The notes under the pieces are model-generated. The model was not told the DNA's origin and ran no database searches. It saw nothing but the letters and a program-made list of their open reading frames with translations. A program made the translations under genes and the position numbers. DNA of 64,000 nucleotides from Candidatus Obscuribacteraceae bacterium (GTDB taxonomy: Bacteria; Cyanobacteriota; Vampirovibrionia; Obscuribacterales; Obscuribacteraceae): contig JBGASG010000006.1 in assembly GCA_044229845.1 (NCBI GenBank), forward strand, positions 32,001 through 96,000, read 5' to 3'. Positions 34,465 to 64,000 of the stretch are shown piece by piece. Numbering within the stretch: the first letter of the stretch is position 1; every line of letters begins with the position of its first letter.

Positions 34465-36288
34465 CGGGACCAAGACAACAGGTAATGTACTCGCGATAAC
34501 GACCTACGACGCTGGTTTGGCTGGCGGCTCTAAAGCCGTCAACTACACAGTCCAGAGCGGCGACACGCTGAATTCCATCGCTTCGGGATTGGCGACTAAC
34601 ATCAATGCCGACACCGACCTCCAAGGGATAAGTGTGTCCGCTGTTGCGGTGACACCCACATCTGGTGTCTCAGTCGTCAATCTGCTCTCTGCATCAAAGA
34701 ACGCGACCACATATGCGAAGTCGTTGAGCGGTGGCGCTACGGAGACAATTGCCCTGAGCAAGAATGTCGGGGTGTCCCAAGCGACCTTCAATACGGTCAA
34801 TGAGCTAACCGGCATCTCGGCCGGTGGCAATGCCCACTTCGAGGAAACACTGACAGTCCGGTATTACCGGTGACTGTCGCAGGCAATGCTGTCGACATGC
34901 CGACATCTCAAAGTTTTTCGGGGAATGCCGCGCTGTCGTCGGGGAGTAACAGTATCAGCGTGAGCGCCACTGCTGGCGGCGGAAGTGGTACAACTACAAA
35001 TACCCACAAGCTAGAAGTGGTGGGCGCTGGCAGCCAGACGCTGACCTACGACGACAACGGCAACCTAACCAGCGACGGAACGAATTCCTTCGCATGGGAC
35101 GCCGAAAACCGACTGATTCAGATTACTTATCCCAGTTCGGGAAATAAAACCGAGTTTGTGTACGGGCCAACTGGCGGCCGGATGAAGATCGTCGAGACGG
35201 TATCCGGGAGCATAACGAGCACTAAGCAGTTCGTCGGTCCTGAGGAGCGCGATGCAAATGGCGATGTTTCTACGAAGTTTTTCGCAGGTGGACAGGTAAC
35301 CGGTGCATCACTTTTCTACTACACGAAAGACCAGTTAGGTTCAGTCCGCGAAATGTGCGACGACACTGGCGCTTCTCAAGCGTTATACGCTTTTGATTTG
35401 ATTGGGAGACCTACAAAACTAGAGGGTGCAGAGGAAAGTGATGTCCAGTTTGGCGGAATGTACATACATCGAAGAAGTGGTTTAAGTTTAGCTTCGTATC
35501 GAGAGTTCAGCGCAAAACTTGGACGATGGCTGAGTAGGGATCCCATCGGCGAGGATGGCGGCTCAAACCTGTATGCGTATGGTGCGAACGATCCCGTTGG
35601 TTCTGTCGATCCAAGTGGTCTGCTAAAGTTCTGCCTGTCTGCCCAGAAAGGACGGGGGCTGGCAGGGTTCTTAGGTTACCGAGGGTACCAAGGTCCCCCA
35701 ATTGGACCCCCCGTATACCCCCCGATTGACACAGGAGGCAGCTCCGGTTCTGGAGACGGTGGCGGAGGTGGAGATCCTTCATTCGGTCCCGTAGCTGGTC
35801 CCCCCATCAAAATACCAGGTAGCAATGGGCAACCCACATGGCACTGGGGTCCAATAGGAAGCGCTCTCTCTCAAATGAGTAGCGATGACGCCGCAACCAC
35901 TGGTTTCTATACGGGCATGGCGACCTTAGGAGGAGCTTTAGCAGGCGGCATGATGGCTGCTAGCAGCGGTGGCGGTGGCGGTGGCGGTAGCTCAGGTCCC
36001 ACATTCATTGTAACTCCAGGCGGTACAGCCTATCCCGTGCCAACAGGCGCAACGGGTCCCGTGCCGACTTTCGTCCGCACGGGCGCAACTGCAGGTTCTC
36101 GAAACGGTAGTGCTTTTGTCGGCGGCAGGGGAGGAGCAAACGGACAAGTCCGAACAATGAGAATCATGGACCCGAAGAGAGGAGCCTCTAGGGGATATAT
36201 AAAGTACGAAAACGCAAACGAGCAAGGCGTCAACCCTTATACTGGTCGAACTGGATCAGATGCCGAGACGCACTTCATGATTGATTAG
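34465..36288 (+). pseudogene. 5'-truncated, frameshifted Rhs gene with intact core end and C-terminal toxin tip A
   Basis: Near-identical to the inverse of ~61280-60600; 1-nt deletion near 34840; WLSRDPIG...DPSG core end; tip ending RIMDP...GYIKY.N...VNPYTG...H. Confidence 0.85.
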
Positions 36289-36300
36289 GCGGTGTGCTGA

Positions 36301-36777
36301 ATGACTCACGACAATCTGGCGCAACTCCCCCCCGCGGAGATTTGCTACCGAATTCTTGCAGGCAAAGAAATATCGGGCGTTCGATTCGGCTATCATCTCT
36401 CGGTGATAGTGGACGGATTACACAAGGGTTTTTCGAACACTGTCAAAGGCGAGTCCTTTGTCACCCTTGCTGGCCCATGGGTACTTTCTAAAGCAAACGG
36501 GGTGGATAACTGTCCAAAAGCTACATCATCTCCGGGCTTGAGCGCTGCCGATCAATTGATGCAAATTTCTCAGGTCGCCGAAAAGCTAATTCTGTCCGTT
36601 GAGGTGAGTGCGGACTCTTGTGACTTGCTGATCCATATAGAGGACGGATGGTTGCTGACGGCCAGCGGCGATGGTGATGAAGGGTGGCACGTAGGACTCC
36701 GGGATCAATTTAGCCTCTCCGTAAGGGAACGCGTGATTACGTCTCTGGATCTGTGTCTGCCTGGTGATGACGCATGA
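36301..36777 (+). CDS. Putative immunity protein for tip A
   Basis: Small ORF immediately after the Rhs stop codon. Confidence 0.6.
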   Translation: MTHDNLAQLPPAEICYRILAGKEISGVRFGYHLSVIVDGLHKGFSNTVKGESFVTLAGPWVLSKANGVDNCPKATSSPGLSAADQLMQISQVAEKLILSVEVSADSCDLLIHIEDGWLLTASGDGDEGWHVGLRDQFSLSVRERVITSLDLCLPGDDA

Positions 36778-37033
36778 TCTCTGTGACCGGCGATGCAACG
36801 CTCACTCCAGGTAAGCGAAGCATAGTTCCCCAATGGTCTGCACTGCCTGTGTGCTTCTTTATAATCGTCCTTCATTTTTCGCGAACAGCCGGACAAAGAG
36901 AAAGGGAGGACCACCATTTTTGAAAGCGGTATCAAAGCTTTGGCACTTTCTCGCAATTGGGCATCTGTGCACGGTTCAGCGGGACCACTCAACATGCCGC
37001 CGCTGCGCGCGCGTAAGTGCAGGTTAAAGAGGG

Positions 37034-37162
37034 CACTACTCACAGCCCGAAACCCGCAGAGAATGGGCGTTTATCCGTATACCAAAAATGCAGAAGTGAT
37101 ACCAAACCCACTACTCACAGCTCGAAAGAGCCAGCCAGTCAGAGTTTATCCGTATACCAAAA
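37034..37162 (+). repeat. Bipartite direct repeat, 75-bp period
   Basis: CACTACTCACAGCYCGAAA-N16-GTTTATCCGTATACCAAAA occurs twice. Confidence 0.8.
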
Positions 37163-37596
37163 TCTCACTTCACCCCTGATCAGCACCCCGCAAAAACAAA
37201 TTCGCGGTCCCTTGTTGCCTGAATGTTCCCGACCGTGCCTGGTACTGCCCGTGTGGTCCGCACCGTAGACGGTGTCGTATTGCGCAAGCATCGATTGACC
37301 GGCTATATTGAGCAAATGCGATAGAAACGCGCCCGCAGACGGAAGCCCGCGTGTTCCGGTCGCAAATCTCTCACGCAAGCATCGAACAACGGTTGCTTAG
37401 CTCAACGAGTACGCGTTCCTCCCCGGGAACTTGCCTGAAGGACAACCAAGAATTCTGCGCGTCAGGAAGCAGGGGTTCGCACAAGCCCTGGACTGATTCC
37501 ATACCAGACGCCGTCACTCGCTCTCAGCGACTCCACAGCGACATTAGCGCGCGCCTGCGCTTCATGCCCGGCACCAGCCGAGCGGCGGAGCCCTAG

Positions 37597-37702
37597 TGTC
37601 AAGGCCAAGCCCCTGCGGGGTGGCTCCTTTCGTCGCCAGCCTTGACACCAGGGACCTGCTCCGCCGCTATTCAGGCATGAGGGCATGGCGACTTGGCGCG
37701 CG
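37597..37702 (+). other. Conserved multi-stem element upstream of integrase 1
   Basis: GTCAAGGC...GCCTTGAC closing stem; homologs at 52453-52556 and 56626-56728. Confidence 0.75.
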
Positions 37703-37831
37703 AATTTTTCCGCTAACCGGAGCCTGGAAACGCACAAGCCATCAGCCTTCCGGAACATAAACTTTTTTCCGAACTGCATACATTGTGCTTACACAACTTT
37801 TTTGCCCACCCCAAATTTCAAAGGCGGACCG

Positions 37832-39043
37832 ATGCCCAAATTGACCAAATTGTTCGTGACCAATGCACCGCTCCCACAGAAGGGACAGATTATCTATCGC
37901 GACACCGCGGTAGTCGGCCTGGGACTTCGCGTTACGCCCGCAGGGTGCAAAAGTTATGTGGTGGAAGGCCGGGTGAACGGTGTGTTCCGTCGCATCACCC
38001 TCGGCAGAGAGAATGAGCTAACTCCCACCGCCGCGCGCAAAAAAGCCCAGAAGGTTTTGACCTCGCTGGCAGCCGGCAAAGATCCGATTGTCGAAAAGTC
38101 GAAGAAGAAGATTCGAGGGGCAACCTTGCGGGAGGTTTTCGAGCATTTCCTCACCGTGCGCAACCTGCGCCCGAACACCATGCGTACCTACAGAAATATG
38201 CTGCCCCGCTGTTTGGGTGACTGGCTCGATCTGCCGGTGGTGGCAATCACAAGAGAAATGGTCGAGCAGCGTCACATGGACCTGCGCCGCACCACCAGGC
38301 AGGGCACATCTGGCGAGGCCCAGGCGAACACAGTCATGCACGTCCTGGGTACGCTCCTTAACTTCGCAGCTGTCAACTACGAAATCGACGGCAAGCCAAT
38401 CATCCTGGTCAATCCAGTCAAGCGCCTTTCCAATAATCGCCGCTGGTATCCCGAACGGCGCCGACAAACAATTATTCCTGACCACAAACTGCCTGCCTGG
38501 TACAGCGAGGTCATGTCGCTGAGGCAGGAAACTGTCAGGGACTACCTGCTGCTATTGCTGTTTACCGGATTACGCCGCAACGAAGCAGCCACCTTGCGAT
38601 GGGCTGATGTCGATCTTGAGGCGAAGGTCCTCACGATCCGTTCGGAGATAGCAAAGAACGGGAACGAGCACCGCTTGCCACTAAGTGACTTTCTCGAAGA
38701 CTTGTTGAAGCGAAGACACGCATGCCGGGGGGACGCAGAGTTTGTGTTTCCTGGACGCGGCAAGAAGCCGCACATCATAAGTCCAGATTGCTTGATCGAA
38801 CAATTAGCAGAGAGGATCAACTGTCCGTTCACGCCGCACGATTTGAGGCGAACGTTTCTGACGGTAGCCGAGAGGCTGGCACTTTCATACGTGGTGCTGA
38901 AAAAACTCGCAAATCATTCAGGAAAGAACGACACGACCTTTGGTTATGTCGTGGTGGATGTCGAACGACTGCGCGAACCCATGCAAAGAATCACGAATGA
39001 ATTTCTGAGGCTGTGTAAGCCAAATACCGACGAGGAAGCCTGA
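37832..39043 (+). CDS. Tyrosine integrase 1 with N-terminal arm-binding (DUF4102-like) domain
   Basis: GLGLRVT...RRITLG; TGLRRNE, KN, HDLRRT, NH, GY catalytic residues. Confidence 0.93.
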   Translation: MPKLTKLFVTNAPLPQKGQIIYRDTAVVGLGLRVTPAGCKSYVVEGRVNGVFRRITLGRENELTPTAARKKAQKVLTSLAAGKDPIVEKSKKKIRGATLREVFEHFLTVRNLRPNTMRTYRNMLPRCLGDWLDLPVVAITREMVEQRHMDLRRTTRQGTSGEAQANTVMHVLGTLLNFAAVNYEIDGKPIILVNPVKRLSNNRRWYPERRRQTIIPDHKLPAWYSEVMSLRQETVRDYLLLLLFTGLRRNEAATLRWADVDLEAKVLTIRSEIAKNGNEHRLPLSDFLEDLLKRRHACRGDAEFVFPGRGKKPHIISPDCLIEQLAERINCPFTPHDLRRTFLTVAERLALSYVVLKKLANHSGKNDTTFGYVVVDVERLREPMQRITNEFLRLCKPNTDEEA

Positions 39044-39173
39044 ACGCCAATGGCGCATTTTTCCGAATCGCATACAATGAGCTTACAAGCCTTTTGAAAC
39101 TCGACGTCGCCGCAAGCGAAGACACCGACACCACGACGCATTGGCACCACCGGCGATGCGAGCGTTTTCAAAC

Positions 39174-40084
39174 AGATTACTTATCCCAGTTCGGGAAACA
39201 ATTCGGCTTTTACATATGACCCGCACGGAAGAGTGGTCAAAATTGTGGAGACTGTGGCGAGCAGCGTCACCAGCACAAAACAGTTGATTAACCTTGGATT
39301 CCGATTTGCCGAGGAGCGGGATGGCTCTGGAAGTCTTACCAGGCAGTTCTTCCGAAGAGGTCAGATCGTTGGAGCTACCAATTATTTCTATTTCAAAGAT
39401 CAGCTTGGCTCGATCCGGGAAATGACCGACGCAGCTGGTTCGGCAGTGTCAAGTTACACCTTCGATCCTTTCGGCAGGGTTGCGAGCATCACCTCCACGG
39501 TTGAGAGTGACCTGGGCTTCGGCGGGTACTACCGCCATCGACGGAGTAATCTGGACCTCGCATTGTTTCGAATATACAGCGCTGCACTTGGCCGCTGGAT
39601 CAGCAGAGATCCCATTCGAGAAAAGGGCGGCTTGAACATGTATGCATACGCGGGAAATATGCCGGTGCGAAAGTTAGATCCGACGGGATTGAGCTGTAAC
39701 AACTTCGACGACGATGAAAACTACCCTCCTGATGAAGACGATTGGTTGCCTTGGCTGGAGATTCCATCTTACACAACAGATCCACACATGGAAGGGGTTT
39801 TTCAGCTTCCTAGACCGAAAAGACGAATCCGTCTACGTTCATTCTTTAAGCCCTGCAAACCGGATAGTGATCCGCAATGCTGCGAAGAAAACCGTGTGGG
39901 CTGCGGATCAGTGGCGAGAATCGTCAATGAAAAGTTCGACTTGAGTCTGGATGAGTTTCAAAAGTTGATTGATTGTTGTGACAAGGCATTTAAGGAATGC
40001 GAGGAGCATTACCGCAGTGGGACAGAGTACCCCCAACATCCCTGGGAAGATTGCTTTAAGGAATATGTGATTTTCACGAAATGA
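39174..40084 (+). pseudogene. Orphan Rhs C-terminal cassette (tip B), starting exactly at the AGATTACTTATC core
   Basis: ITYPSSGNNSAFTYDP..., WISRDPI...DPTG, Cys/acidic-rich tip. Confidence 0.85.
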
Positions 40085-40184: not shown

Positions 40185-40844
40185 TTGTTCCTGAAAGCGT
40201 TAGGCAGCACAATTGAACGTAGAACTGATTCCCATCTCTCTTCTCAACGCCAAAGGATTTCAAAGATGGATGAAGAAACTTTCCGGAAGGTTCTTAGGAA
40301 TGGCTTCGTGCTAAGGGAACAAGCATTTGCTGAAGTTGGTCAGATTTCGCGAGGGCGCAAAGCTTTAGATTGTGCCGATCAGTTGCTAAACTGCGACGAT
40401 AAGTTGACTGGTTCCCAGCTTTTGGAAGTGCTTGTCGAGTTTACGCCCTTAGCAATAGCTTGTGGTGACTTTTCGCGAGCCTCAACCTACGTAGCGATGC
40501 TTGTGCAAATATCTCAGGAAAACACACATATGTGTCACTTGGCTTATACTGCCTGGATATTTAACGGTATGGTACTTCTCGGACAGGGAAGAGGCGTGGA
40601 AGCTGTAGACTCGTTGAACAGAAGCTCCCTTCCTCTGTCGCCAGACGGGAGTTTATTAGTACCCAGCAAACGCCTGCTCAACTTTTTACGCGAACTGCTG
40701 CATTCGGAAGCTGCCTTGATGGCGCATTCCAGAGAGGCAGTCGTTGGATTTGTCAGCAGATTAGTAGAAGGCATAAAAGATGAGCCAGGGAGACCAAACA
40801 AGCAGAACTTCTTATTATTCCTCGAAGAACTACAGGGAAGCTAG
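40185..40844 (+). CDS. Putative immunity protein (helical/TPR-like; start probably 40266)
   Basis: Directly follows tip B. Confidence 0.55.
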   Translation: MFLKALGSTIERRTDSHLSSQRQRISKMDEETFRKVLRNGFVLREQAFAEVGQISRGRKALDCADQLLNCDDKLTGSQLLEVLVEFTPLAIACGDFSRASTYVAMLVQISQENTHMCHLAYTAWIFNGMVLLGQGRGVEAVDSLNRSSLPLSPDGSLLVPSKRLLNFLRELLHSEAALMAHSREAVVGFVSRLVEGIKDEPGRPNKQNFLLFLEELQGS

Positions 40845-40976
40845 AACGAAGCCTGGCGTCGAACCACCAGCGGCACCACGAGCCTTCCAAAATCAAGTCG
40901 CGAGCCAGAGCGACGGTCAACCTACCTACAGCATGTCCGTCATTGTGTTTCTTAGCCCTGTGAGCTACGGCGAACG

Positions 40977-41347
40977 GCAAGATAAAAGGATGATTTCAAC
41001 CACCCGAAACGCGCACCACTGGCGGTGTTACACGGTTTCGCCAATGGTATCCGCGAATGCCGCATGCCTAGATGGGAAGCCCTGTCTGACTCGAACGGCA
41101 TTCGCGCATCGGTAGCGCGTTTCCGGCATCTCTTCGGAGTCTTTCTCATTCTGTCGTGGCATCGGTTTGGGCTCAGAGAATTAGCGGATTTCACTTCCAG
41201 ACGCATGTTCCTAGCTGACCCTATATGTGGTGGCATTGTGGAACAACGCGCCCCAGTGCGCGTCACTGGCTACTGACGAGCTAACTTCGCTCGAACACCT
41301 CACTCTCCGTGAGGCATGGCAAGCCGCAGGCTTGCTTCAACAATTGC
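40977..41347 (+). repeat. Conserved non-coding block (oriT-like), cut by IS66
   Basis: Inverted near-copy at 44360-44730; related blocks at 53220-53361 and 58570-58931. Confidence 0.8.
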
Positions 41348-41402
41348 GTGTGCGTCCGGTAGTCCACGTCGTTGGCAATTTTGCGTCGCCGTGGTTTGCT
41401 AA

Positions 41403-41915
41403 TTGCACATGCGGCGCTGCCAGTTCGAAGCTGCGAAGAGCGCCTGCACTGAGAGTATGCGAGGGCAAGGCGTGGCACGAGCAAGAAAAGCGGATAGGCA
41501 CCAAGACGGCGACGTGCTCCTGACACGGAACGAAGCTGCCGAGTATCTCGGCGTCTCTCCCAATACGTTGGCGATCTGGAGTTGCACGGGGCGGTATGAC
41601 TTACCCTTCGTGAAGGTCGGGCGGCTTGCAAAATACCAGAGGTCAACTCTCGATCAGTTCTTGCAGCGCCGCACCAAGCACTGGAACGGGACGGAAACGG
41701 GACGCGCGGACCGTCCTTCCAAGCCCCGCGAGGTTCGGTCTCAGGAAGTCGAATTCCGTGAGGTGCGGCTGGTCGATCCTCGCAGGACCGACATCGTACC
41801 GTCATCCAGCAGCGTGTTGGAGATCGTTCTACCAAGTGGTATCACTCTTCGACTACCGGGAGGATCTTCTCCAGACTTCCTTGCTTCGGTAATCGCTACA
41901 TTGGAGAAAGCGTAG
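41403..41915 (+). CDS. IS66 TnpA-like protein with an excisionase-type HTH
   Basis: LLTRNEAAEYLGVSPNTL..W; C-terminal LEIVLPSGITLRL. Confidence 0.7.
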   Translation: MHMRRCQFEAAKSACTESMRGQGVARARKADRHQDGDVLLTRNEAAEYLGVSPNTLAIWSCTGRYDLPFVKVGRLAKYQRSTLDQFLQRRTKHWNGTETGRADRPSKPREVRSQEVEFREVRLVDPRRTDIVPSSSSVLEIVLPSGITLRLPGGSSPDFLASVIATLEKA

Positions 41916-42322
41916 TGTTTAATTTGTCACCATCGGTGCGGATTTTCGTTTGCACAAAGCCTATCGACATGAGGCGTTCGTTCGACGGGCTATTCGGTCT
42001 TGTTCAATCGCTAGTGCATCAAGATCCATTTTCTGGATCGCTCTTTCTCTTCCGTAGTCGACGCGGCGACTTCATAAAAATTCTCTGGTGGGACCTCGAC
42101 GGCTTTGCCATTTTTGCCAAGCGCCTCGAAGTCGGAACATTTCGTTTTCCGGAAGTGCGGTTCGTGAACGGCGAGTATGAAGCAATCGAGATGGAACGAT
42201 CTGACCTTCTCCTGCTTCTAGAGGGCATCGACACCGATTCTGTGAAGAGATTGAAGCGCTACCGCCGGGAAAGCCCGGATCGAGCCAAAAGCGCCACCCC
42301 AAAAGTACCCGCCATGCGGTGA
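41915..42322 (+). CDS. tnpB: IS66 accessory protein TnpB
   Basis: PIDMRRSFDGL, KILWWDLDG, KRLEVGTF. Confidence 0.93.
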   Translation: MFNLSPSVRIFVCTKPIDMRRSFDGLFGLVQSLVHQDPFSGSLFLFRSRRGDFIKILWWDLDGFAIFAKRLEVGTFRFPEVRFVNGEYEAIEMERSDLLLLLEGIDTDSVKRLKRYRRESPDRAKSATPKVPAMR

Positions 42323-42405
42323 GCGATCAGACCAGTGCCACGGGCTGGTACTTTCGAGAAATGCGGAGTAAAACATAATAGAATTTTCCAAGACGCTGGC
42401 CGGCA

Positions 42406-44049
42406 ATGTCGCCACCATTGGCGGTGCAATACAGATCAGTCAGATCTAAGCTGCAAAATACGGTCCCGAGTAGTACCATATACGGTATCACTCAGGTATT
42501 TGCCGTGCCAAAATCCGAAGATTCCGAAAATACGCGCCTCAGAAAAGAAAATGCCCGGCTCCAAAAGTCGCTGGACCGCATGGAGAAGCAGCTCCAAGAA
42601 GCCAATGACGCCAACAAAGAGCTGCGCGCGCTCATGAAGGATCTCCAGGAAAAACTCGACATCCTTATCGTCCAATTCAAAAAACGGAATCGCAAGGACT
42701 TTGGCAACAAGACTGAACGACACAATCCGCGGCCGGCACTCGCTGTCGAATTGTCTCCTCTGACTGCTAAGGAAAAGTCGACTCCAAAACCACGCAATCA
42801 CATCAAGCACATTCTCTCGCAGAACCTTCCCCCTGAGATTGTTCCGCACACCGTTAAGCCGGAAGATGCAACCTGTCCCTACTGCATCGTTGACACCGTT
42901 TTCGTCGGCACCGAAGTGACCCACCAGTTGGAGCGCTTGACTCAAACGCTTAAACATCTGCAGCATGAGCAGGAAGTTCGGGCGTGCCCGAAGTGTAGGA
43001 AGTACATCGTCACCGCAGAAAAACCTTGTTCGCCAATTCCCGGCAGCTACGCCGGACCGGGACTGCTCGCGGACGTCTGTGTGAACAAACTTGCAGACGG
43101 GCTTCCAAACTACAGACAGGAGAAAAGATACAAACGCGAAAGTGCCACCATACCACGGTCCACTCAAAGTGATTGGATGCTGGCTGCCTCGTTTACTGTT
43201 GAGCCTCTGTACGATCTCGTTACTCGACGCCTGCTCCTTTCTCGCGTAATACAGACGGACGACAGCGAACTTAAGGTCCAGGACCGGAAGCACAAGCGAA
43301 AAATGCGCAAAGGCAAAATGACTGTTTACCGCGGGGATGAGAATCACAGGTTTGTAGCCTTCGATTTCTCTCCCGATCAAACCTTCGCCAGGAACATTGC
43401 ATTCCTCGAACAGTTTGTCGGCATCGTACAGGCCGACGCCGCAAAGGGCTTCGACAAGCTGTACGAGGATGGCACCAAAGTCGAGGCCGGTTGTAACGCC
43501 CATTCGCGCAGGAAGTACTACGAAGCGCTGGTGATTGATCCTCAAAGCTGCAACCCGATCCTGGACATCTATCACGCACTTTACGACATCGAAGCGGAGA
43601 TCAAGACACGGAGTCCTGCGGAGAAGCTGGCTGAGCGACAAGCACGATCGAAGCCACTCGTTGGGCAGCTTCACGCCCTGGTTCTCTCTCTTAGTGAGAA
43701 ATTGAACCCTAAACATCCAGTCATGCGCGCCGTCCTGTACACGCTCACTCACTGGCAGGCGCTCACTCGCTTTCTCGAAGATCCTGCCATCAATATCGAC
43801 AACAACGCCGCCGAGCGAGAAATCAAAGACTTCGTGATTGATCGAAAGAATTTCCTGTTCGCAGGCTCGGACGCTGGCGGTAAGTCGATTGCCATTCTCC
43901 TGACTCTCATTGCCTCTGCGAAGCGCAACAAGATCGACCCACGTGCATACCTCACCGACGTGTTTACGCGCATCAACTCCATGAAGACCAGCGAGCTTGA
44001 GCAGCTTCTTCCGGACCGGTGGACGCCAAACCAAAACAAAGTCTCCTGA
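42406..44049 (+). CDS. tnpC: IS66 transposase TnpC (start probably 42505)
   Basis: Coiled coil, zinc finger, QTDD, QAD, CNAHSRRKY, IDNNAAER, LLPDRW. Confidence 0.93.
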   Translation: MSPPLAVQYRSVRSKLQNTVPSSTIYGITQVFAVPKSEDSENTRLRKENARLQKSLDRMEKQLQEANDANKELRALMKDLQEKLDILIVQFKKRNRKDFGNKTERHNPRPALAVELSPLTAKEKSTPKPRNHIKHILSQNLPPEIVPHTVKPEDATCPYCIVDTVFVGTEVTHQLERLTQTLKHLQHEQEVRACPKCRKYIVTAEKPCSPIPGSYAGPGLLADVCVNKLADGLPNYRQEKRYKRESATIPRSTQSDWMLAASFTVEPLYDLVTRRLLLSRVIQTDDSELKVQDRKHKRKMRKGKMTVYRGDENHRFVAFDFSPDQTFARNIAFLEQFVGIVQADAAKGFDKLYEDGTKVEAGCNAHSRRKYYEALVIDPQSCNPILDIYHALYDIEAEIKTRSPAEKLAERQARSKPLVGQLHALVLSLSEKLNPKHPVMRAVLYTLTHWQALTRFLEDPAINIDNNAAEREIKDFVIDRKNFLFAGSDAGGKSIAILLTLIASAKRNKIDPRAYLTDVFTRINSMKTSELEQLLPDRWTPNQNKVS

Positions 44050-44115
44050 ATTTCGCTACCTCAGGAAACCACGCCCCACCTTAATTTCCTAGGACGTGAA
44101 GAACCGGACGCACAC

Positions 44116-49892: not shown

Positions 49893-49916
49893 GTAAAAGC
49901 CGAGTCCATAATTGCC

Positions 49917-54131: not shown

Positions 54132-54148
54132 GGGTTACTCTCGGTTAA

Positions 54149-55125: not shown

Positions 55126-55264
55126 TTTTGGATCGGTGTGCACCGCGCGTGGTGCTTGTACGACACAGGTGCCGAATTTTGAAATTGCGTTGTAAATAGC
55201 TTTCCGACGACTGTCGCTGCATTGTCGACAACAAAGAAAAATACGCGGTGCTGAAATACGGCTT

Positions 55265-56491
55265 TTACTGCGCTTTCTCGGGGTGTGGTGAACTTTCAGA
55301 AGCTTCTTGGGACACTCTCGCCTTACACAGGGTTAGAAGCTCGTTGGTGGCTCGCAGTCTCTCCACATCTACTACAACATAACCGAAGGTGGTGTCATTC
55401 TTGCCGGAATGGTTCGCCAGCTTTTTCAGAACGACATAAGAAAGCGCAAGTCTTTCTGCTACCGTGAGGAAAGTTCGCCTGAGATCGTGAGGCGTGAACG
55501 GACAACCGATCTTTTCCGCGAATGCATCTATCGCGCAATCTGAGCTTACCATGTGGACTTTTTTGCCACGTCCAGGAAACACATATTCGGCGTCTCCGCG
55601 CCCTTCGTATCGTCGCTTCAGCAGCTCTTCCAAGAAGTCACTCAATGGAAGTCGATGCTCTTTTCCGTTCTTTGCGATCTCTGATCTAACGGTGAGGACT
55701 TTGGCGTCAAAGTCAACGTCTTCCCAGCGCAAGGTGGCAGCTTCGTTGCGGCGCAATCCGGTGAACAACAGAAGCAGAAGATAGTCCGTCACTGCTTGAC
55801 GCTTCAGCAGCATGACCTCTCGAAACCACTCGGGCAGCTTGTGGTCTGGAATTATTGTCTGCCGCCTGCGCTCTGGATACCAGCGGCGATTCTGCGACAG
55901 ACGCTTGACGGGGTTATATATAATGATGGGTTTTTCGTCTATCTCGTGGTTTGCGGCGGCGAAGTTGAGCAGCGCTCCGAGCATGTGCATCACGGTGTTC
56001 GCTTGTGCCTCTCCTGACGTTCCTTGCCTGGTGGTCCTGCGCAATTCGGCATGGCGTTGCTCGACCATGTCCCGCGTGATTGAAACCACCGGCAAGTCGA
56101 GCCAGTCTTCCAGGCAGCGCACGACCATATAGCGGTAAACCCGCACGGTGTTCGGCTTGAGATTCCGGACTGAGAGAAACTGTTCCAGAATTTCGTGCAA
56201 CGTCACTCCGGTGATCTTTTTCTTCGCCTTCTCCACCATCGGATCTTTACCGGCGGCCATCATGGCTTGCAGTTTGCGCGCCTTTTTCCGCGCCGTGGTT
56301 GGAGTCAGGGGTCCACTTTTGCCCAGGGTGATTCTTCTGGCGACTCCGTTGACCCGAGCTTCAACGACGTACGTCTTGCTTCCGGGCGTCACCCGTAACG
56401 CGAGCCCGACAAGCACCGTGTCCCGATAGATTTTCTGGCCTCGCTCCGGAGGCTCCACTTCATTCACAAACTTTTGGGTCAATTTGGGCAT
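55265..56491 (-). CDS. Tyrosine integrase 3
   Basis: Paralog with intact catalytic residues; small in-frame deletion after VERLR. Confidence 0.93.
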   Translation of the reverse strand: MPKLTQKFVNEVEPPERGQKIYRDTVLVGLALRVTPGSKTYVVEARVNGVARRITLGKSGPLTPTTARKKARKLQAMMAAGKDPMVEKAKKKITGVTLHEILEQFLSVRNLKPNTVRVYRYMVVRCLEDWLDLPVVSITRDMVEQRHAELRRTTRQGTSGEAQANTVMHMLGALLNFAAANHEIDEKPIIIYNPVKRLSQNRRWYPERRRQTIIPDHKLPEWFREVMLLKRQAVTDYLLLLLFTGLRRNEAATLRWEDVDFDAKVLTVRSEIAKNGKEHRLPLSDFLEELLKRRYEGRGDAEYVFPGRGKKVHMVSSDCAIDAFAEKIGCPFTPHDLRRTFLTVAERLALSYVVLKKLANHSGKNDTTFGYVVVDVERLRATNELLTLCKARVSQEASESSPHPEKAQ

Positions 56492-56880
56492 TTCGTCGCC
56501 TTTGATTTTGGGGTGGTATGTAAAGTTGTGTCGTCACTATGTCGACGACTTGAGAAAAAGTTGCTTCCGCTATGGCTGATTGGATGGGGCTTTCCGACGT
56601 TTACTGCTTTTTGATTTCAAAAATCCGCGCCAAGTCGCCATGCCCCCATGCGGAATAGCGGCGGACCGGGTTCCTGCTGTCAAGGCTGGCTCCGAAGGAG
56701 ACACCCCGCAGGGGTTTAGCCTTGACAGTAGGGGTCCGCTGCTCGGCTTCAGCCGGCATGGAGATTTCCCGTCAAATGTCAATCTGGTGAACGCGCGCAA
56801 ACAAGTTCGCCAGTTGCGAAGCAACTGGCACCGTATTCAGTGCACTTCGATGTCGAACTAAGACGCTTTGAAGTGTGGGT

Positions 56881-57762
56881 TTACGTGGTTTCGTGCTTTC
56901 CTTGCGCAAGAAGGCGTTCAGAGAATTCTCTGATCTGGGGATTGTGTACTCGCGCGGCGCGTGCCGGCATGAATAAAGCTCCCCTAACTGCCGCACTTCC
57001 TCGTTTAGAAATACGATCCTTTTCTCTCACTGATATTCCTGATGCGTGTTTTCGGCTGGTCAATCCGAGAAAGCATGCTAAAGACCGACTTGAACGAAAG
57101 CGCCGGAAATCAATAAGCGTGAGTAGGGTGACCGCTGATCTGTCAGCTATTCCAGGGATCGTGCACAAGAGCGTGAAATCGTTGCTCAGAACAGGGTGTT
57201 GACCGATTAGCTCTTTGGCCCGCCCCAGGGTTTGCTCTAAATTAGACTCCGCCATCGCCAACTCGGCTTCGAGCTGCTGTTTCACAAACTTGGAGCGGAG
57301 TCCACATGCAAGCTGGCATCGGATTGCCACAGTTCGCTTTGTCAGCGAACGAATCAATACTACCGTGTCTCTCAGCTCCCACTCTAAGTTCGTCTTTGGC
57401 TGCCACTGAGGAAGTTTGTCAGAACGCTCTTTGCAGTATTCTGCGAGCAGGTACGCTGCCTTCCGATCAGAACGAATGCGAATCTCGTGTGATTCAGCGT
57501 ACTTCGAAAACTTGAGCGGCTGCGCCAAAAAGACGCGCGTCTTGCGTTTATGAAAATACTCAGCAACGATTTCACCGTATCGCCCGGTCGGTTCGATGAC
57601 TAAGTCGATACTCTGAATGCCGTTCTCTTCAAGCCATTTGACACAGGCTCGAAGTCCATGAGCATTTCGCGCAAAGCGCTCGGAAAGTGCTTTACCATTT
57701 GGTGGTAGAACGCAAATGTCAAACCATGGTTCGGATATATCCGCACCAGCTGGAACCTTCAT
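56881..57762 (-). mobile_element. IS110-family transposase, probably degenerate or C-terminally truncated
   Basis: GADIS, IEPTG, SDRKA (last DEDD Asp appears as Ala), IPGI, GL....ASG, ISKRG...R..L. Confidence 0.8.
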
Positions 57763-58163
57763 AGAACCTCTTTCTATTGTAGTGTGCGGATCGAAGCAGC
57801 GGCCTTATCCGAAGCTCTTATACGGTTTCACGAACGTGACCAAAGATTTCCCTCGGGTTAGACTATTGCTGCGGTGAGAGGAGAGTCGCAAATCTCCATA
57901 TGACAGGTTTTGCACTGGGCGCAGGCTCGGTTTACTCTCCTCTCTCCGATCTCTCAATAATTACCTAACCACATATCAAAGCTGTCAAGTTCAATATAAG
58001 AGCGCAGGCGCGCTACCATCGGGATGGATTTTTGGCGGATGGATTTCCAGCGGCGTGATGTGGAACCGCGGAACGTCAGGCTCCTTGCCGGATTTGAGCC
58101 ATTCGAATCGCCCATGCGCAACGTTGAGTGCGCGGTACGCTTTCGGTGGCCTTCTCGGGCTTG

Positions 58164-58559
58164 CTATTCCTGGTCCAGATGCTCCTGGTCATCTTTGAGA
58201 TGGCTGGAGGTCTTTTGTTGCAGAAATTGCCTCGCGAAGCTTTGCGCCAATTGCTTCAGTGCTATTTGGTCCTTCTCATCAACCTCGTACAGAGCGAGCT
58301 GCTCGGTGAAGAACCAGACCATCGAGATGGCTTTGCTCAGTTTGATCATCCAGCCAGCAAATCGGTCTTCCATTCGCCGCAGACGCTTCTCTACGTAGGC
58401 GAATTGGGAGTTGGTGGCTGCCTCGGCCCGGGCGACAATTCCGTCGCGGACCAATTCACGCACCATCTCGGCGGGGGTGAGCCTGTTCGCTTTCGCCAGT
58501 CGGGTGACTTCTTCTGCCATCTCCTTTGGGAAGCGAACACAGAATTGGGGTAAACGCAT
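58164..58559 (-). CDS. RHH/CopG-like DNA-binding protein (mobilisation-accessory-like)
   Basis: FCVRFPKEMAEEV..LA......AEMVRELV; lies downstream of the conserved block. Confidence 0.65.
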   Translation of the reverse strand: MRLPQFCVRFPKEMAEEVTRLAKANRLTPAEMVRELVRDGIVARAEAATNSQFAYVEKRLRRMEDRFAGWMIKLSKAISMVWFFTEQLALYEVDEKDQIALKQLAQSFARQFLQQKTSSHLKDDQEHLDQE

Positions 58560-59240
58560 TCATACCTCAGAACACGCGCGCGTTGCGCTTGGACATTGAT
58601 GCAAGCAAGGCGCTTGCGGGGCTCCTCAATGAGAGCGAGGAGAAATGACGAGTTAACTCATCAGTTTCCGTTGACGCGAGAAAAGGCGGTTGGTTCCCAG
58701 AATGCCACCACATATAGTGTCGGATGGGCATCGCTATCGAGGTGTAGGCAGGGACAGGAAGAAAAAGGCGGAGTAACGGTTCCTCAAACGCACCAGCGAT
58801 GGGCGACTGCCGTTCACCGCACTCCTGGAGCCAGTTGAGGGTACCCGGCATTATGTGGGGTACTTTCTGGAACCATGGCAGGGCACCACTCGTGGTGCAC
58901 GCGCCAAAATGAAATCATCGCTTTATCCTGCGTTCCGGTCCGAACTACTGAGGTGCGATAAAATTCAAAGCCAAGAGTCTGCAATGTTGTTGCAGCGGAT
59001 TCTGAGTTGGTCGCTTTGCCGCAGGCGCAGACTCAGTCGAACTCACGGCACTGCGTGATCGGCTGAAGTAAGGAAATCCTTCGTATTGATTCACTGCGAG
59101 CGCGGCGTGTGGTCATTTGGGATCTGTCGCTCTCCTCCATAACAAAACGTCCCCTACAAAGTCCGCGACGAACGCACACTGCGTTGCGTGCAGGCGCGAT
59201 AGTAGCGTCGGGTGATTCACAGGGTGCAGGCTAAGGCACC

Positions 59241-59678
59241 CTATCTGCGTCCCAACAGCCGCATCATAGTCGAACGAATGACAGAGGCATCGACGCCACC
59301 AAGCGAACTTTGATTTGGATCCCAGTTTGTCAATGCCAGCAGCAAGTGTTCGGGACCAATAACCCTCATGCCCAGTTTGCTGGCTTCGACGTAACTAGCA
59401 CGAATCAAACTGAGCAGCCGAACGGGTCTGCCCATGCTCTGCCCAACGCTGTCTTCCGCGTAGATTTGCTCTGAGGAGATGCGCAAGAGGCTCAATACTT
59501 TTGCTGCAGTGCATGTGCCTTCCTTAGATATTCCGCCCATGATATCGCGCAATTGAGCATTCGGAGTTGCTGCATGTTCAAAAGCAAGTTTCAAAACGGT
59601 TCGAGCTTTTGGCGTAAGTCGAATCGGGCTCGCCTTTACTGATTCTTCTTGCATAGTGGCTCGTTGGGATAGCCCCAC
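59241..59678 (-). CDS. Stand-alone Clp N-terminal-domain protein in the immunity position
   Basis: RLTPKARTVLKLA, AAKVL, EASKLG...IGPEHLLLAL. Confidence 0.7.
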   Translation of the reverse strand: MGLSQRATMQEESVKASPIRLTPKARTVLKLAFEHAATPNAQLRDIMGGISKEGTCTAAKVLSLLRISSEQIYAEDSVGQSMGRPVRLLSLIRASYVEASKLGMRVIGPEHLLLALTNWDPNQSSLGGVDASVIRSTMMRLLGRR

Positions 59679-59684
59679 TCCTCT

Positions 59685-62600
59685 TTATTCAATGCCATAA
59701 GTGTCCATGCATTCCTGGACGCAATCATCACGTGTTTCCTCGGCTTGTCTTAGCTTAGCGCGTTTCTCATTGCCTTCGGGCATTGAGTCGACCTCTTTCA
59801 GATCAATTCGGTACCAATCATCGCAATCCTTGCAGCAATCGTCAAACGGATCCTTGTCCGGTTTTTGTTCTGGAGGATCATCGTGCCCGTCTGGCGGAGG
59901 CGGTCCTCCTCCTGCTCCGCCCATAATGACGGTCTCATCTGTCGGCGTCACGGGTGGACCGTCATCTTCGTCCTCGTCCTTCGGGCATGGATTAGGTGGT
60001 TGCGGATTAGGCGGTTCAGGCACAGGTCCCGGAGGCTGACTCTGATTGAATTGCTGCCAGAGCCATAGCAAAATGTCCATTAGGTCCATTTTTCTGATTA
60101 CGGCATTACCGCTTGGGTCCCTCCACATAGTCGGGCGATTCCCAACATATCGATATAGATTGAGGCCGCCCCTTTCTCCGATGCGATCGCGCGAAATGAA
60201 TCTACCGATCTTCGCGTTGTAAGCCCGCGTTCGAGTAAAGTTGAGCCCACTACGGGCATGCAGATAGTAACCGGCGAACTGAAAATCGCTGTCCTGCATA
60301 CTCTCAAGCGTCTTAGTCCTGCCAAAGGGATCAAAGCTATAAGAAGCCTGCACATCGCCGCTGTCGTCCGTCATTGTCCAGACGGAGCCAAGATGGTCCT
60401 TGTTGTAGAAATAGCTTGTTGAGTTATCGATCTGCCCGCGCGAGAAAAACTGCTTGGAGGCGTTTCCGCTGCCGTCGCGCTCTTCGCACCGAGTACTACC
60501 TGACCAAATATGCTGCTTGGTGCTGGTGACGCTGCTCGCAACGGTCTCCACAATTTTGACCATTCTTCCGAATGGGTCATATGTGAAAGCCGAGTTATTT
60601 CCCGAACTGGGATAAGTAATCTGAATTAGGCGGTTTTCGGCGTCCCATGCGAAGGAATTCGTTCCGTCGCTGGTTAAATTGCCGTTGTCGTCGTAGGTCA
60701 GCGTTTGGCTGCCAGCGCCCACCACTTCTAGCTTGTGGGTATTTGTTGTTGTACCGCTTCCGCCGCCGGCGGTGGCGCTGACGTTGACACTGTTACTCCC
60801 CGACGACAGCGCCGCGTTCCCAGAGAAATTCTGAGATGTCGTCATATCGACGGCATTTCCTGCGACAGTCACCGGCAGTACCGGTCTGTCGGTGTTTCCT
60901 TGGAAGTGGGCATTGCCACCGGCAGAAATGCCTGTCAGTTCGTTGACCGTATTGAAGGTCGCTTGAGAGGCCCCAATGTTCTTGCTCAGGGCAATCGTCT
61001 CGGTAGCGCCGCCACTCAGCGATTTGGCATACGTGGTCGCGTTTTTGGACGCAGAGATGAGGTTGACGACCGAGACACCAGATGTCGGTGTCACAGCAGT
61101 GGCGGACACACTTATCCCTTGGAGGTCCGTGTCGGCATTGATATTAGTCGCCAGTCCTGAGGCAATCGAATTCAGGGTGTCGCCGCTCTGGACCGTGTAA
61201 TTGACGGCTTTAGAGCCGCCGGACAAGCCGGCGTCGTAGACCGTTATTGTGAGTACATTGCCTGTTGTTTTGGTCCCACCAATGACAGCGGTCACCGTGC
61301 CGTTCGCTGGAAGGTCCCAGAGAATGGTTTCGGTTGCGCTGGTACTTCTCGACGGAAGGTAGGTGGTAGCATTTCGCGAGACAGATGTGACTGTTAGCAC
61401 AGTTCCTGATGATGAGGCAGAAACGCCTACAGCTTTCAGATCCGAGTCGGCGTTGAGTGCCGATGCGAATCCGCTGGTTATGGACGTGAGGTTGTCTCCG
61501 CTTTGAACTGTGTACGAAACGCCCTTAGACCCGCCGGATAGTCCGGCATCGAAAACCGTCAGAGTTAAGACATCTGCTGTTGTCTTGCTTCCGCCGATGA
61601 GGGCGTTGACGGTGCCATTCAAGCTTGGCCCGAGAGCGACAGTTTCCGTACCAGCGCCCGTGACCGACTTCGTGAAGGTCGTGACATTTGGCGAGAGTGA
61701 CTGAATGGCGATCACCGGTCCATTGGATGTCGCAGTGATGCCGGCTCCCGAGAGACTCCCGCTTCCGTTGATGGATGCCGTCAGAGCCGTGGCAATCGAG
61801 GTCAGCGTGTCGCCACCCTGGACTGTGCGGCTAACGCTCGTAGAACCACCGCCGAGGGCTGGATCATGAACGGTTATCTGAACGACGTCGCTCGTGGTTG
61901 GCGTGCCCCCGATAGTGGCGTTATGCAGAGCTGCATTCACGCCGAGGCTGGCGGTTTCTGTTGAACCACCGCTCAAGCTGGTCGCGAAGGTAGTCACGTT
62001 AGGAGACTTCGAGCGCAGCGTCACCGTGGTCCCGCTCGAAACAGCATCGATTCCAACCGATTGGCAATCGGAGTTCGCCGTTATCGTTGCAGCCAGATTG
62101 GCGGCAATCGTCGTTAGCGTGTCTCCAGAGAGCACTGTGTAAGCGACCGCTTCCGTACCTCCGCTCAATCCGCTGTCAGTTGCGGTGACGGTGATGACGT
62201 CACTAGTGGTTTTGCTGCCGCCGATCACGAGATTCTGGACCTGGCTCGTTTGCACGTCAGTCCGGTTGGCTGCGGAGTCGTAGGAGAAGAAGTGCTGGTC
62301 CGCGAATGGCGCGGGCAACACGCCCTTACCACTTACCGCTGCCGTCAGTTGACCTGCAGCGTCGTAATCCAGACCGAATCCCACGTGCCGGGTTTTCTGC
62401 TGCTGCATCCAGCGAGTGATTTGCCCCGTTGGATCTTGCGCATAGTTGAATTGAGACAATGCTTGCGAATTCGGATCAAGATTCCTTATCTCGCGTAAGC
62501 GTTGATCTTGATCGTTGCCGTACCAATCAAATGCAGTTGTTTGACCATTCGGATATGCGATACTGGCTAGTCGGGATTGTCCCTTTGAGACCCCGACGCC

Positions 62601-64000
62601 ATCATCTACATAGGTGAAGTCGAATTGTCCCAACTCGTTTGTTTCTGAGACGACGCGAGACATGCCGTCATAGACCCAATCGATCGAATTGTTTGTACCA
62701 TCTATAGAGCGGTTCGTCGTTCTACCCAATTCGTCATATTCAAAAGTGATATCAGAATTTGGAATTACCGTGTTCGTGATGGTTGCTAGTCTGCCACCAC
62801 CGGTGATGGGTGGATCGGTGGGATCCGTGATGTAATCGTTGTATTCATATTTATATGAGCCCCAACCATTGCGTGCCTCAATCAGGCGGTTGTAGTGGGT
62901 GTCATACGAATTGAGCACAGTAGAAGTCGCGTTGACTGCATCAACATACTGCAGCGAATTCAGAGTACCGTCCCAAATCCGATAATACTGCGTCTCCTGT
63001 CCGAGCGCATCTCGCTTGATTGCAAGGGCATTGCGATTTGTCTCCCAGATATATTTTGTGGTTGCATTGTCTTCCAAGACCTTCTCGATGACACGACCTT
63101 GCAAGTCGTGATTCCAGGTTGTTGTATGCCCGGCAGCATCGGTGAGTTCGCTGAGCGAACCACAAGAGCACCAGGTGTAGGATGTTTTCCTGCCTAGCGG
63201 ATCAATCTCGAATGCGAGCTGGTCCATGTTGTCGAATGAGCGTTGTGTGGTTCTCCCGAGACGATCTATGAAGAAGATCGCGTCAAGGTCTTGGAACACT
63301 GTCTGCTGCGTGGTCTGATCAGGAAATGTCGTTTTGACCAAACGATCCATGTCATCGTAGTCAAACGACAATGTGTAACCTTCCGCATCCGTGCTTGACG
63401 CGAGCGTTCCGTTTTCATTCAAGACCAGGGTTGTGACATCGTCTTCTTGAAGCGGACCGGTTATTTTTGTCAGGAAGCCATAGGCGACCGGCGACAGGGA
63501 GACGGTTACGCCGCCGGTTACCGCCTGGCTATAGCTCGTCGCGTTGACCGAAACAGACTTGATGGTCAAGTCTGCACCACTTGCACTCGCCGAAACGCCG
63601 AGGGTCTGCAGATCTGTATTGCCATTGATATTGGAAGCCAATGATGCGGCGACGTTGCTAGCCGTTTGTCCCGGCGTAGCGGTGTGAGATACCGTCTCCG
63701 AGCCACCAGGCAGATCCGGATCAGACACGGTGATGCTTGCCTGGTTGCCCGAGCTGATGGTGCCGCCTATGGTGGCATTCTCCGTTGACGTGTATTCGTA
63801 CGTCGTCACATTAGAAAGGGGATCCGTGACAGAGGTGAGCTGCCCGAAGACATTGTAGGTCATGTCGGTCTCTTGTCCTGAGCCGTCCATTTTTGTCAGC
63901 GGCAGATGTTGGCTGTTGTATGTGAATGTCCCAAGGACGAAATCATTGCTGTCGCGCGTTTCGTGAATTTCCTCCAAATCAATATTGTTTGCGGCATACT
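59685..64000 (-). CDS. Large Rhs/YD-repeat polymorphic toxin (5' end beyond the window) with inserted beta-rich repeats
   Basis: Frame open to the window edge; YD repeats, FISRD...DPSG core end, Pro/Cys/acidic tip. Confidence 0.92.
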   Translation of the reverse strand, partial: YAANNIDLEEIHETRDSNDFVLGTFTYNSQHLPLTKMDGSGQETDMTYNVFGQLTSVTDPLSNVTTYEYTSTENATIGGTISSGNQASITVSDPDLPGGSETVSHTATPGQTASNVAASLASNINGNTDLQTLGVSASASGADLTIKSVSVNATSYSQAVTGGVTVSLSPVAYGFLTKITGPLQEDDVTTLVLNENGTLASSTDAEGYTLSFDYDDMDRLVKTTFPDQTTQQTVFQDLDAIFFIDRLGRTTQRSFDNMDQLAFEIDPLGRKTSYTWCSCGSLSELTDAAGHTTTWNHDLQGRVIEKVLEDNATTKYIWETNRNALAIKRDALGQETQYYRIWDGTLNSLQYVDAVNATSTVLNSYDTHYNRLIEARNGWGSYKYEYNDYITDPTDPPITGGGRLATITNTVIPNSDITFEYDELGRTTNRSIDGTNNSIDWVYDGMSRVVSETNELGQFDFTYVDDGVGVSKGQSRLASIAYPNGQTTAFDWYGNDQDQRLREIRNLDPNSQALSQFNYAQDPTGQITRWMQQQKTRHVGFGLDYDAAGQLTAAVSGKGVLPAPFADQHFFSYDSAANRTDVQTSQVQNLVIGGSKTTSDVITVTATDSGLSGGTEAVAYTVLSGDTLTTIAANLAATITANSDCQSVGIDAVSSGTTVTLRSKSPNVTTFATSLSGGSTETASLGVNAALHNATIGGTPTTSDVVQITVHDPALGGGSTSVSRTVQGGDTLTSIATALTASINGSGSLSGAGITATSNGPVIAIQSLSPNVTTFTKSVTGAGTETVALGPSLNGTVNALIGGSKTTADVLTLTVFDAGLSGGSKGVSYTVQSGDNLTSITSGFASALNADSDLKAVGVSASSSGTVLTVTSVSRNATTYLPSRSTSATETILWDLPANGTVTAVIGGTKTTGNVLTITVYDAGLSGGSKAVNYTVQSGDTLNSIASGLATNINADTDLQGISVSATAVTPTSGVSVVNLISASKNATTYAKSLSGGATETIALSKNIGASQATFNTVNELTGISAGGNAHFQGNTDRPVLPVTVAGNAVDMTTSQNFSGNAALSSGSNSVNVSATAGGGSGTTTNTHKLEVVGAGSQTLTYDDNGNLTSDGTNSFAWDAENRLIQITYPSSGNNSAFTYDPFGRMVKIVETVASSVTSTKQHIWSGSTRCEERDGSGNASKQFFSRGQIDNSTSYFYNKDHLGSVWTMTDDSGDVQASYSFDPFGRTKTLESMQDSDFQFAGYYLHARSGLNFTRTRAYNAKIGRFISRDRIGERGGLNLYRYVGNRPTMWRDPSGNAVIRKMDLMDILLWLWQQFNQSQPPGPVPEPPNPQPPNPCPKDEDEDDGPPVTPTDETVIMGGAGGGPPPPDGHDDPPEQKPDKDPFDDCCKDCDDWYRIDLKEVDSMPEGNEKRAKLRQAEETRDDCVQECMDTYGIE

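Follow-up and report, generated by a model that had tools for sequence, protein, structure and literature searches.

The locus described here raises the question of how rhs genes, whose variable 3' ends (hereafter tips) presumably encode toxins, come to exchange these ends. In Jackson et al. 2009 (PMC2935791), the displacement of rhs tips is attributed to homologous recombination via a postulated circular intermediate that carries the tip, and the excerpt of that paper drawn on here knows of no integrase accompanying rhs. The window analysed is a stretch of 64,000 nucleotides (nt) from Candidatus Obscuribacteraceae bacterium (assembly GCA_044229845.1, contig JBGASG010000006.1, here C3; C3:32001-96000), whose genome consists of 22 contigs amounting to 5.16 Mb and is 88% complete. 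It contains two converging arrays of integrative elements, of 4.1-5.5 kb each, in which tips of rhs genes and genes of tyrosine integrases are found at recurrent positions around a short core sequence. Comparison of the window with the rest of the genome and with other assemblies makes it likely, in our judgement, that such elements install Rhs tips at the core by means of their own integrase, and toxin swapping at this locus looks enzyme-driven rather than accidental.

A short core in rhs sequence and behind integrase genes

The core was recognized as a 12-mer, AGATTACTTATC, which occurs in five exact copies in the window: 35120-35131 and 39174-39185 on the forward strand, and 50995-51006, 55114-55125 and 60611-60622 on the reverse strand. 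Shuffling of the window gives an expectation of 0.10 matches with at most one mismatch, and six matches were reached in none of 100 shuffles; the sixth match found in the window at this tolerance (62479, one mismatch) proved unrelated to the core copies. At four of the five copies the identity extends to the 25-mer AGATTACTTATCCCAGTTCGGGAAA, which has no further match with up to three mismatches in the 5.16 Mb of the genome, the copy at 50995 departing from it beyond the 12-mer. Two copies lie within rhs sequence and three behind the stops of paralogous tyrosine integrase genes, as a preliminary description of the sequence had stated, and its estimate of about 130-140 nt between integrase stop and core agrees with the measured 129-139 nt, that is, 130 nt for integrase 1 (stop at 39043), 129 nt for integrase 2 (end of the open reading frame, ORF, at 51136) and 139 nt for integrase 3 (ORF end at 55265). 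The same description placed the core inside two longer rhs genes, which holds for RhsB and not for the copy at 35120, where the rhs sequence is a 5'-truncated fragment.

Alignment of the five sites showed that at the integrase-side copies rhs similarity begins exactly at the motif. The abrupt onset of rhs homology claimed for these copies was thereby confirmed, and is also apparent from the switch in identity across the core: in ungapped windows of 120 nt, the copy behind integrase 3 is 25% identical to RhsB on the left of the core and 84% on the right. The truncated fragment, RhsA (34466-35119, forward strand), is 86-92% identical to RhsB 60623-61277, with the homology beginning at 34466 and an ORF at 34870-36288; in the same kind of comparison RhsA and RhsB share 96% identity on the left of the core and 56% on the right.

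The cores delimit three core-to-core units, E1 (35120-39173, forward), E2 (51007-55125, reverse) and E3 (55126-60622, reverse), with the order core, tip, presumed immunity gene, backbone, integrase gene, a flank of about 130 nt, and the next core. The copies at 35120-35131 (rhs on the left, E1 tip on the right) and 60611-60622 (within RhsB) are of the attL type, and those at 39174-39185, 50995-51006 and 55114-55125 (the latter with respect to E3) of the attR type. The tip of E3 (312 amino acids, aa; 59685-60623, reverse) is fused in frame to RhsB, and an equally continuous ORF (1-2802) is present in L013, one of the foreign loci discussed below, so that the proposed in-frame placement of an element's tip in rhs is sustained by both.

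In the rhs reading frame the core codons are CAG/AAG-ATT-ACT-TAT-CC, corresponding to Q/K-I-T-Y-P; of the Q-I-T-Y-P given earlier, I-T-Y-P stands, while the first residue can be Q or K. The core can be generalized to AGAT-NNN-TTAYCC, a 13-16-bp sequence in the rhs frame with the codons Q/K-I-T/D/N-Y-P. It precedes the Rhs-associated core domain by about 100 codons and, judging from the placement of this domain and of the DPSG/DPTG motif in the tips, the usual toxin boundary by about 175. The central triplet is ACT, GAT or AAT according to lineage and is identical in the rhs-embedded and integrase-side copies of co-oriented arrays, both in the genome itself (contigs C3, C13 and C1) and in L013, L028, L029, L032, L034 and L063; the exception is L012, with ACT in two core copies and ACC in the third, which lies in rhs. 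The matching triplets would look like an overlap region requiring identity in both partners, a pattern that gene conversion could also yield.

All three window integrases (integrase 1, 37685-39043, forward, with homology to integrase 3 from near 37832; integrase 2, 51136-52404, reverse; integrase 3, 408 aa, 55265-56491, reverse) match Phage_integrase (PF00589) with 57.4-70.3 bits (cut-off 27.1) and Arm-DNA-bind_3 with 48-53 bits (cut-off 27), a domain content that predicts P4-type tyrosine recombinases. The columns R247, K274, H335, R338, H361 and Y371 are invariant in six paralogues and can be matched to positions in the catalytic domain of XerA (4a8e); from the motif positions of tyrosine recombinases we take them to be the catalytic residues (R, K, H, R, H, Y). 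Between integrase and core lies a P-type arm, which behind integrase 1 spans 39044-39173 (forward) and carries a box, GCACC-N6-GRTGC, at 39144-39159, 14 nt ahead of the core. Flank and box (GCACC-N6-GGTGC, 13-15 nt ahead of the next core) are kept across genera, the spacing from box to AGAT being 14 nt in 11 junctions, 13 nt in two and 15 nt in one. When searched as GCACCAC-N(2-3)-SSGRTGC, the box has 43 matches in the genome, a number far above what a rough estimate would lead one to expect; those in the window are at 39144-39159, 51020-51035, 53313-53328 and 55140-55155. The box is consequently not specific to the elements, though its spacing of 13-15 nt to the core is conserved. Five small backbone ORFs from E1-E3, considered as candidates for a shared excisionase, do not align with one another.

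Recurrence of the arrangement and modules joined at the core

The same arrangement is found elsewhere in the genome, where C13, C1 and C22 carry further integrase paralogues with 74-84% identity. Together with the three window genes these make six close paralogues (at least 70% identity), each of which is followed by a core and then by an rhs tip, and all six tips begin at one residue, RhsB aa 1126. The core variants on C13, C1 and C22 are AGATCACTTATCC or AGATCACATACCC. On C13 the integrase copy lies behind a full-length rhs gene of 2471 aa, whose own core matches the integrase-side core. The backbones of E3 (C3) and of the C13 element, E4, share 94.7% identity over 2046 nt and the host rhs bodies 61% in protein; the backbones being far more alike than the host genes, the elements must be much younger than these genes. 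The 2471-aa protein (L005 1647-9062) has, in addition, a Peptidase_C39 domain at residues 281-397.

Scans with the integrase alignment yielded 14 loci on genome contigs and 37 on metagenome contigs, the relatives found in this way being labelled Melainabacteria or Obscuribacterales. Foreign integrase copies were counted when they had at least 56% identity and at least 300 nt of downstream sequence, leaving out the duplicates L034, L056 and L045 and the copies with short downstream sequence (L014, L031, L035, L040 and the second copies of L037 and L041). A co-oriented rhs tip within 1.2 kb, beginning at tip residue 1-3, was present in 20 of the 25 assessable copies, and a tip was present in none of 15 distant homologues (at most 40% identity). 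The attL/attR geometry put forward in the preliminary description is thus borne out by its recurrence at six of six own and 20 of 25 foreign integrases. L015 and L043 have a core and gave no tblastn tip match, the core being followed in L043 by a tip-like start and in L015 by non-rhs sequence.

In a class-level search, the integrase clade (E <= 1e-90) was found in 32 of 96 genomes of the bacterium's own family and in none of 204 genomes of ten other families, and no relative of the integrases was found among viral contigs. Of 20 loci with members of 42-51% identity, 11 show an rhs tip at a distance of up to about 6 kb and nine have no rhs nearby; among these loci, L063 is an array of four integrases with a tip behind each and the core AGATCAATTAYCC. 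On a quick integrase tree the core types cluster (14 changes versus 28.9 in shuffles), a result that is given little weight because related sequences share labels. A close integrase (69%), with an ITYP core and a tip, was also noted at L018, on a 706-kb contig of a metagenome-assembled genome (MAG) labelled Bryobacterales, which reflects either a transfer beyond the family or a problem of binning or labelling.

The position of the breakpoints was resolved by three independent loci, the MAG contig L013 and L026 and L027 from two other assemblies, which have two modules in common at 99.5-100% identity. Module A (5.5 kb) consists of a tip, a Kelch-repeat ORF and an IS66 element and has no integrase, and module B (5.1 kb) of a tip, a small ORF, the RNA-like motif described in the last section, an integrase and a Gp49/helix-turn-helix (HTH) pair. 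They are arranged as Rhs-A-B-tip C in L013, A-B-tip E in L027 and B-A-tip D in L026. The shared blocks have six internal ends, each at a distance of 0-26 nt from a core. The only sequence common to all junctions is AGATCGATTATCCG(GG), beyond which the flanks on either side diverge at once, the same left arm being found with different right arms and vice versa. Exchange was confined to at most 16 shared nt, and longer similar stretches located just downstream were not used for crossover. The joining of different partners exactly at the core is expected from site-specific recombination and is not predicted by homologous recombination, because the longer downstream similarity went unused. The differing arrangements imply that the integrase-bearing module B was inserted at three different cores, and the B-A junction of L026 is the sequence expected for a circular A+B unit. 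The geometry of the elements, its recurrence, the exactness of the breakpoints and the varied contexts of identical modules are demonstrated.

Units lacking an integrase are also a feature of L032, in which one integrase is followed by four tip-plus-ORF units of about 1.75-1.95 kb; two of these are preceded by the box flank but by no integrase of their own, a hint that cassettes lacking an integrase are mobilised in trans. In module B of L013, the Gp49/HigB-like and HTH gene pair (11211-11959, reverse) is inserted between integrase and flank, which explains the integrase-to-core distance of 1179 nt in this locus; the pair could stabilise the element.

Proposed mechanism, competing explanations and known systems

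In the proposed mechanism, the circular form of an element would recombine via its own core with the core of an rhs gene or of a displaced tip, the crossover being expected inside AGATTACTTATCC. The tip of the element would become fused in frame to the rhs body, while the former tip and its immunity gene would be shunted behind the integrase, repeated insertions leading to a stack of tips. Any two direct cores could then recombine to excise or reorder units, including those without an integrase, and excision would be expected to restore an older toxin. Catalysis by the integrase, the circular intermediate, the reversibility of the process and the functions of toxin and immunity proteins are what we infer from the sequences.

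Several observations weigh against tip installation by the elements' own integrases. All genomes compared are metagenome assemblies, no listed contig bridges the window junctions with at least 31 nt on both sides, and no recombination product was directly observed. How far the core extends to the right cannot be fixed, since the tips remain similar past it, and both backbones and tips are mosaic, which means that homologous recombination also acts on the elements. The preliminary description had proposed to check whether homologous integrases are consistently followed by tips starting at the ITYP codons; outside the six own and 20 foreign copies that conform to this, four of the 25 close homologues (L016, the second copy of L017, L020 and L055) have no core-started tip downstream, and several integrases of 42-51% identity (L065, L066, L076 and L008, the copy on the genome's own C1) lie beside rhs without a downstream core, so that linkage to rhs need not mean core geometry. 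Finally, at C13:49728 (L006 5728) and in L015 (around 11343) an integrase-type flank and core are followed by non-rhs sequence. The C13 site is 98.6% identical over 635 nt to a same-genus genome (L071), the similarity ending at core+19 and giving way to divergence, which adds another case in favour of breakpoints at the core; since an rhs tip lies behind the same flank in that genome, both sites are probably deletions just past the core.

The accepted model for arrays of rhs orphans, as set out in the excerpted text of PMC2935791, is displacement of Rhs C-terminal ends by homologous recombination, and under it the integrases would be passengers, or parts of unrelated islands between orphan tips. 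Some substrate for such recombination is provided by the tips, which are 57-84% identical to each other in the first 120 nt past the core; the mosaic backbones are in keeping with it, as are classical integrase-free partial rhs copies in the same genome. C18 has two rhs genes, with 3-4 mismatches to the core, in a region that yielded no homologue in either of the integrase searches. Its partial copy starts at aa 471 and not at the core, and the integrase-free partial copy on C1 starts from aa 438; both fit classical displacement, the C18 genes at the same time forming a contrast within the genome that speaks for the role of the core at the integrase-linked copies. However, under this model the core fragments should vary in length and no recombinase should be present, whereas the integrase-linked orphans, own and foreign, start at one residue. 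Neither the restriction of exchange to at most 16 shared nt in L013, L026 and L027, with longer similar stretches beyond, nor the conservation across genera of a flank with its box at 13-15 nt would be expected from it, and we regard it as an improbable explanation of these loci.

An ancestral fusion of flank and tip that was simply inherited, with arrays growing by tandem duplication and gene conversion and no ongoing insertion at the core, would take advantage of the fact that the elements are all homologous, which makes a shared junction heritable, and that relatives on the integrase tree carry the same labels. To this account we assign little probability, because it leaves unexplained both the drop from 96% to 56% identity between RhsA and RhsB at the core and the occurrence of nearly identical modules with different core partners in three assemblies. 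As to a possible misjoining of metagenome repeats into apparent arrays, the data do come exclusively from metagenome assemblies, Logan contigs break near the cores, and C1 and C22 end inside arrays. Such an artefact is nevertheless very improbable, given that over 30 independent contigs, drawn from different assemblies, show the same architecture, that the shared core (12-25 nt) is shorter than the usual assembly words, and that contig depth is present in 30 of 30 bins of 44001-64000 in each of four runs.

Sequencing runs were surveyed for rearranged forms. Twenty runs from 11 studies, all sludge and bioreactor metagenomes available as Logan contigs, contain at least half of the sampled words. 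The contigs of four public runs over 44001-64000 showed no core-to-core joint, which says little either way since assembled contigs drop rare variants, and the same material of assembled contigs revealed no excised circle, empty attB or inversion. With regard to a shufflon or another invertible tip system, cores are in direct orientation within each array and the two arrays are mutually inverted; no strand-changing core joint was found among the contigs of the four runs. One contig of run X14 joins 53361 to 60609, fusing the RhsB core plus 2 nt to the start of the E2 backbone (shorter side 30 nt, depth 7.4). This joint reads as an inverted TTATCC/GGATAA pair, and no counterpart was found in the bacterium's own genome or in the foreign loci compared.

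P4-type integrase islands and prophages enter the 3' part of a gene and supply a replacement end, examples being islands in tRNA and tmRNA genes and e14 and phage 21 in icd. The Rhs-tip elements resemble them in having the integrase gene at one end, short identical cores at the junctions, and a new in-frame 3' end that keeps the target whole. In those islands the same function is restored, whereas the elements described here, of 4-7 kb, would change it by bringing a new toxin and immunity gene, the displaced ends being kept as an ordered stack. The stacking of cassettes at a fixed site by a tyrosine recombinase also recalls integrons, and the integrase-less units (module A of L013 and the 1.75-1.95-kb units of L032) are cassette-like; unlike in integrons, there is no attI/attC pair, most units have their own integrase and the site lies within a coding frame. 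An assignment to the integron integrases (IntI) was rejected, the two models giving 22.2 bits (cut-off 265) and 16.8 bits (cut-off 435).

Compared with the Rhs displacement described in the excerpt of PMC2935791, the likeness lies in a new tip and immunity gene replacing the expressed 3' end, with the old tip left silent downstream, and the difference in the presence of a tyrosine integrase, in orphans that start from one fixed nucleotide and in a junction located about 175 codons upstream of the toxin boundary. The rAID arrays of Bacteroidales, in the portion of PMC12247911 drawn on here, comprise one recombinase linked to arrays of orphan immunity genes for defence; they too tie a tyrosine recombinase to toxin-related cassette arrays with conserved intergenic motifs, yet they install no toxin ends in an rhs gene as far as that portion goes. 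Integrase-like genes near rhs were reported by Steele et al. 2017 (PMC5727410) in the bee-gut Snodgrassella and Gilliamella, and a role for them was speculated upon; the passage in question gives no attachment site, junction or mechanism and concerns unrelated organisms. No account of integrase-driven rhs tip exchange was found in full-text searches of the literature outside subscription journals and supplements.

What is new in the Rhs-tip elements is that the replacement end would alter the function of the gene and that the displaced ends would be stacked for reuse. A mobile element of this kind would leave its target gene intact yet change what the target does. Tip exchange in rhs would be tied to an identifiable enzyme and to a site of 13-16 bp with known sequence, and there are natural variants with breakpoints at that site, which makes the question amenable to a simple attP x attB assay, and such a compact recombination site compatible with a coding frame could serve for swapping protein ends.

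An RNA-like motif and other features of the units

Upstream of each window integrase lies a motif resembling a structured RNA: 37575-37681 (forward) for integrase 1, 52473-52578 (reverse) for integrase 2 and 56645-56749 (reverse) for integrase 3. It has about 90 nt, four helices and two UNCG-type loops, and is followed at some 150-260 nt by the integrase start. With five copies as its basis, a covariance model retrieved 22 sense copies with 68-130 bits, all of them upstream of close-clade integrases (in the window, L005, L007, L009 and 13 foreign loci), and antisense matches of at most 23-39 bits. In the 22-copy alignment, which was fitted to the model, 95.3% of the cells pair and 11 of 34 pairs are changed on both sides, a result equalled in none of 500 shuffles. 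Rfam gave no match in 34000-64000 at E <= 1. The motif probably represents a leader RNA for the integrase gene.

Taken further, and with rather less than even confidence, the elements could be seen as a cassette platform of Obscuribacterales-type bacteria set in the rhs frame, in which a dedicated integrase clade, possibly controlled by the leader RNA, would install, stack, excise and reorder toxin-immunity cassettes at the 13-16-bp core and mobilise integrase-less ones in trans. This would provide a reversible toxin switch that keeps the earlier immunity, and the toxin-immunity pair would make the element hard to lose.

A separate integrase clade, of about 45-48% identity, is represented by L008 (8432-9673, on the genome's own C1), L071, L082 and L065. 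Its members lie just behind rhs tips with no core following and may use another site; the surroundings of the 45%-identical copy next to the rhs gene of C1 showed no repeated core.

The five tips of the window are presumed to be toxins, and the genes downstream of them immunity genes, by position only, family profile searches having given no match for the C-terminal ends or the downstream ORFs. In the E1 tip (389 aa, 35119-36288, forward), the Rhs-associated core domain spans aa 102-168 and gives way to a variable C-terminal domain; this tip precedes a presumed immunity gene at 36301-36777 (forward). Orphan tip 1 (303 aa, 39173-40084, forward; 70 bits for the Rhs core domain) is accompanied by the presumed immunity gene at 40185-40844 (forward), and orphan tip 3 (325 aa, 54149-55126, reverse; 73 bits) would under the model be the tip of E2; both have an uninterrupted frame from core to stop. 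Orphan tip 2 (202 aa, 50399-51007, reverse) looks degenerate, with 21.6 bits against a cut-off of 32.5, and is followed by a gene for a Pro-Gly repeat protein as presumed immunity gene (49917-50402, reverse). The E3 tip scores 76.9 bits and has its presumed immunity gene at 59241-59678 (reverse). The Rhs core domain occupies roughly residues 97-172 from the core, TIGR03696 scoring 63-77 bits in the four tips other than tip 2, and past the DPSG/DPTG motif the five tips have mutually unrelated C-terminal domains of 125-215 residues.

The upstream part of RhsB (60623-64000, reverse, extending past the window) contains RHS repeats (RHS_repeat, 119.5 bits) and LysM. By comparison with a 2441-aa paralogue, its reading frame shifts near the right edge of the window (about 63,880-64,030), giving ORFs of 979 and 1481 aa in different frames (L011 1-4918); this split reflects either a genuine frameshift or an indel introduced in assembly. 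Genes for a type VI secretion system sheath (VipB) or for Hcp were not found in the 88%-complete genome.

The backbones all begin at a sharp boundary with the sequence GCAGGATAAAGCG, which opens the conserved block of E2 at 53213-53361 (reverse); that of E3 starts at 58783-58931 (reverse). The E3 backbone also encodes a ribbon-helix-helix protein (58164-58559, reverse) with weak Arc/RHH matches. The two arrays converge at 40976-44731 in a palindromic arrangement, an IS66-family element (about 41348-44115) lying between inverted backbone-start blocks of about 343 nt (40976-41318 and 44388-44731). Between a backbone-start block and orphan tip 2 with its downstream ORF are genes for LanB (lantibiotic dehydratase, 1005 aa) and LanC (cyclase, 421 aa), at 45605-49892 (reverse), which may be cargo of the oldest unit. 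An IS110-family gene (56881-57762, reverse) is situated in the E3 backbone and at the same site in the C13 element, its backbone position being identical in three elements (window E3, L005 and L009); this shared position and the 94.7% identity between the C3 and C13 backbones indicate that it travels with the backbone and is not a fresh insertion.

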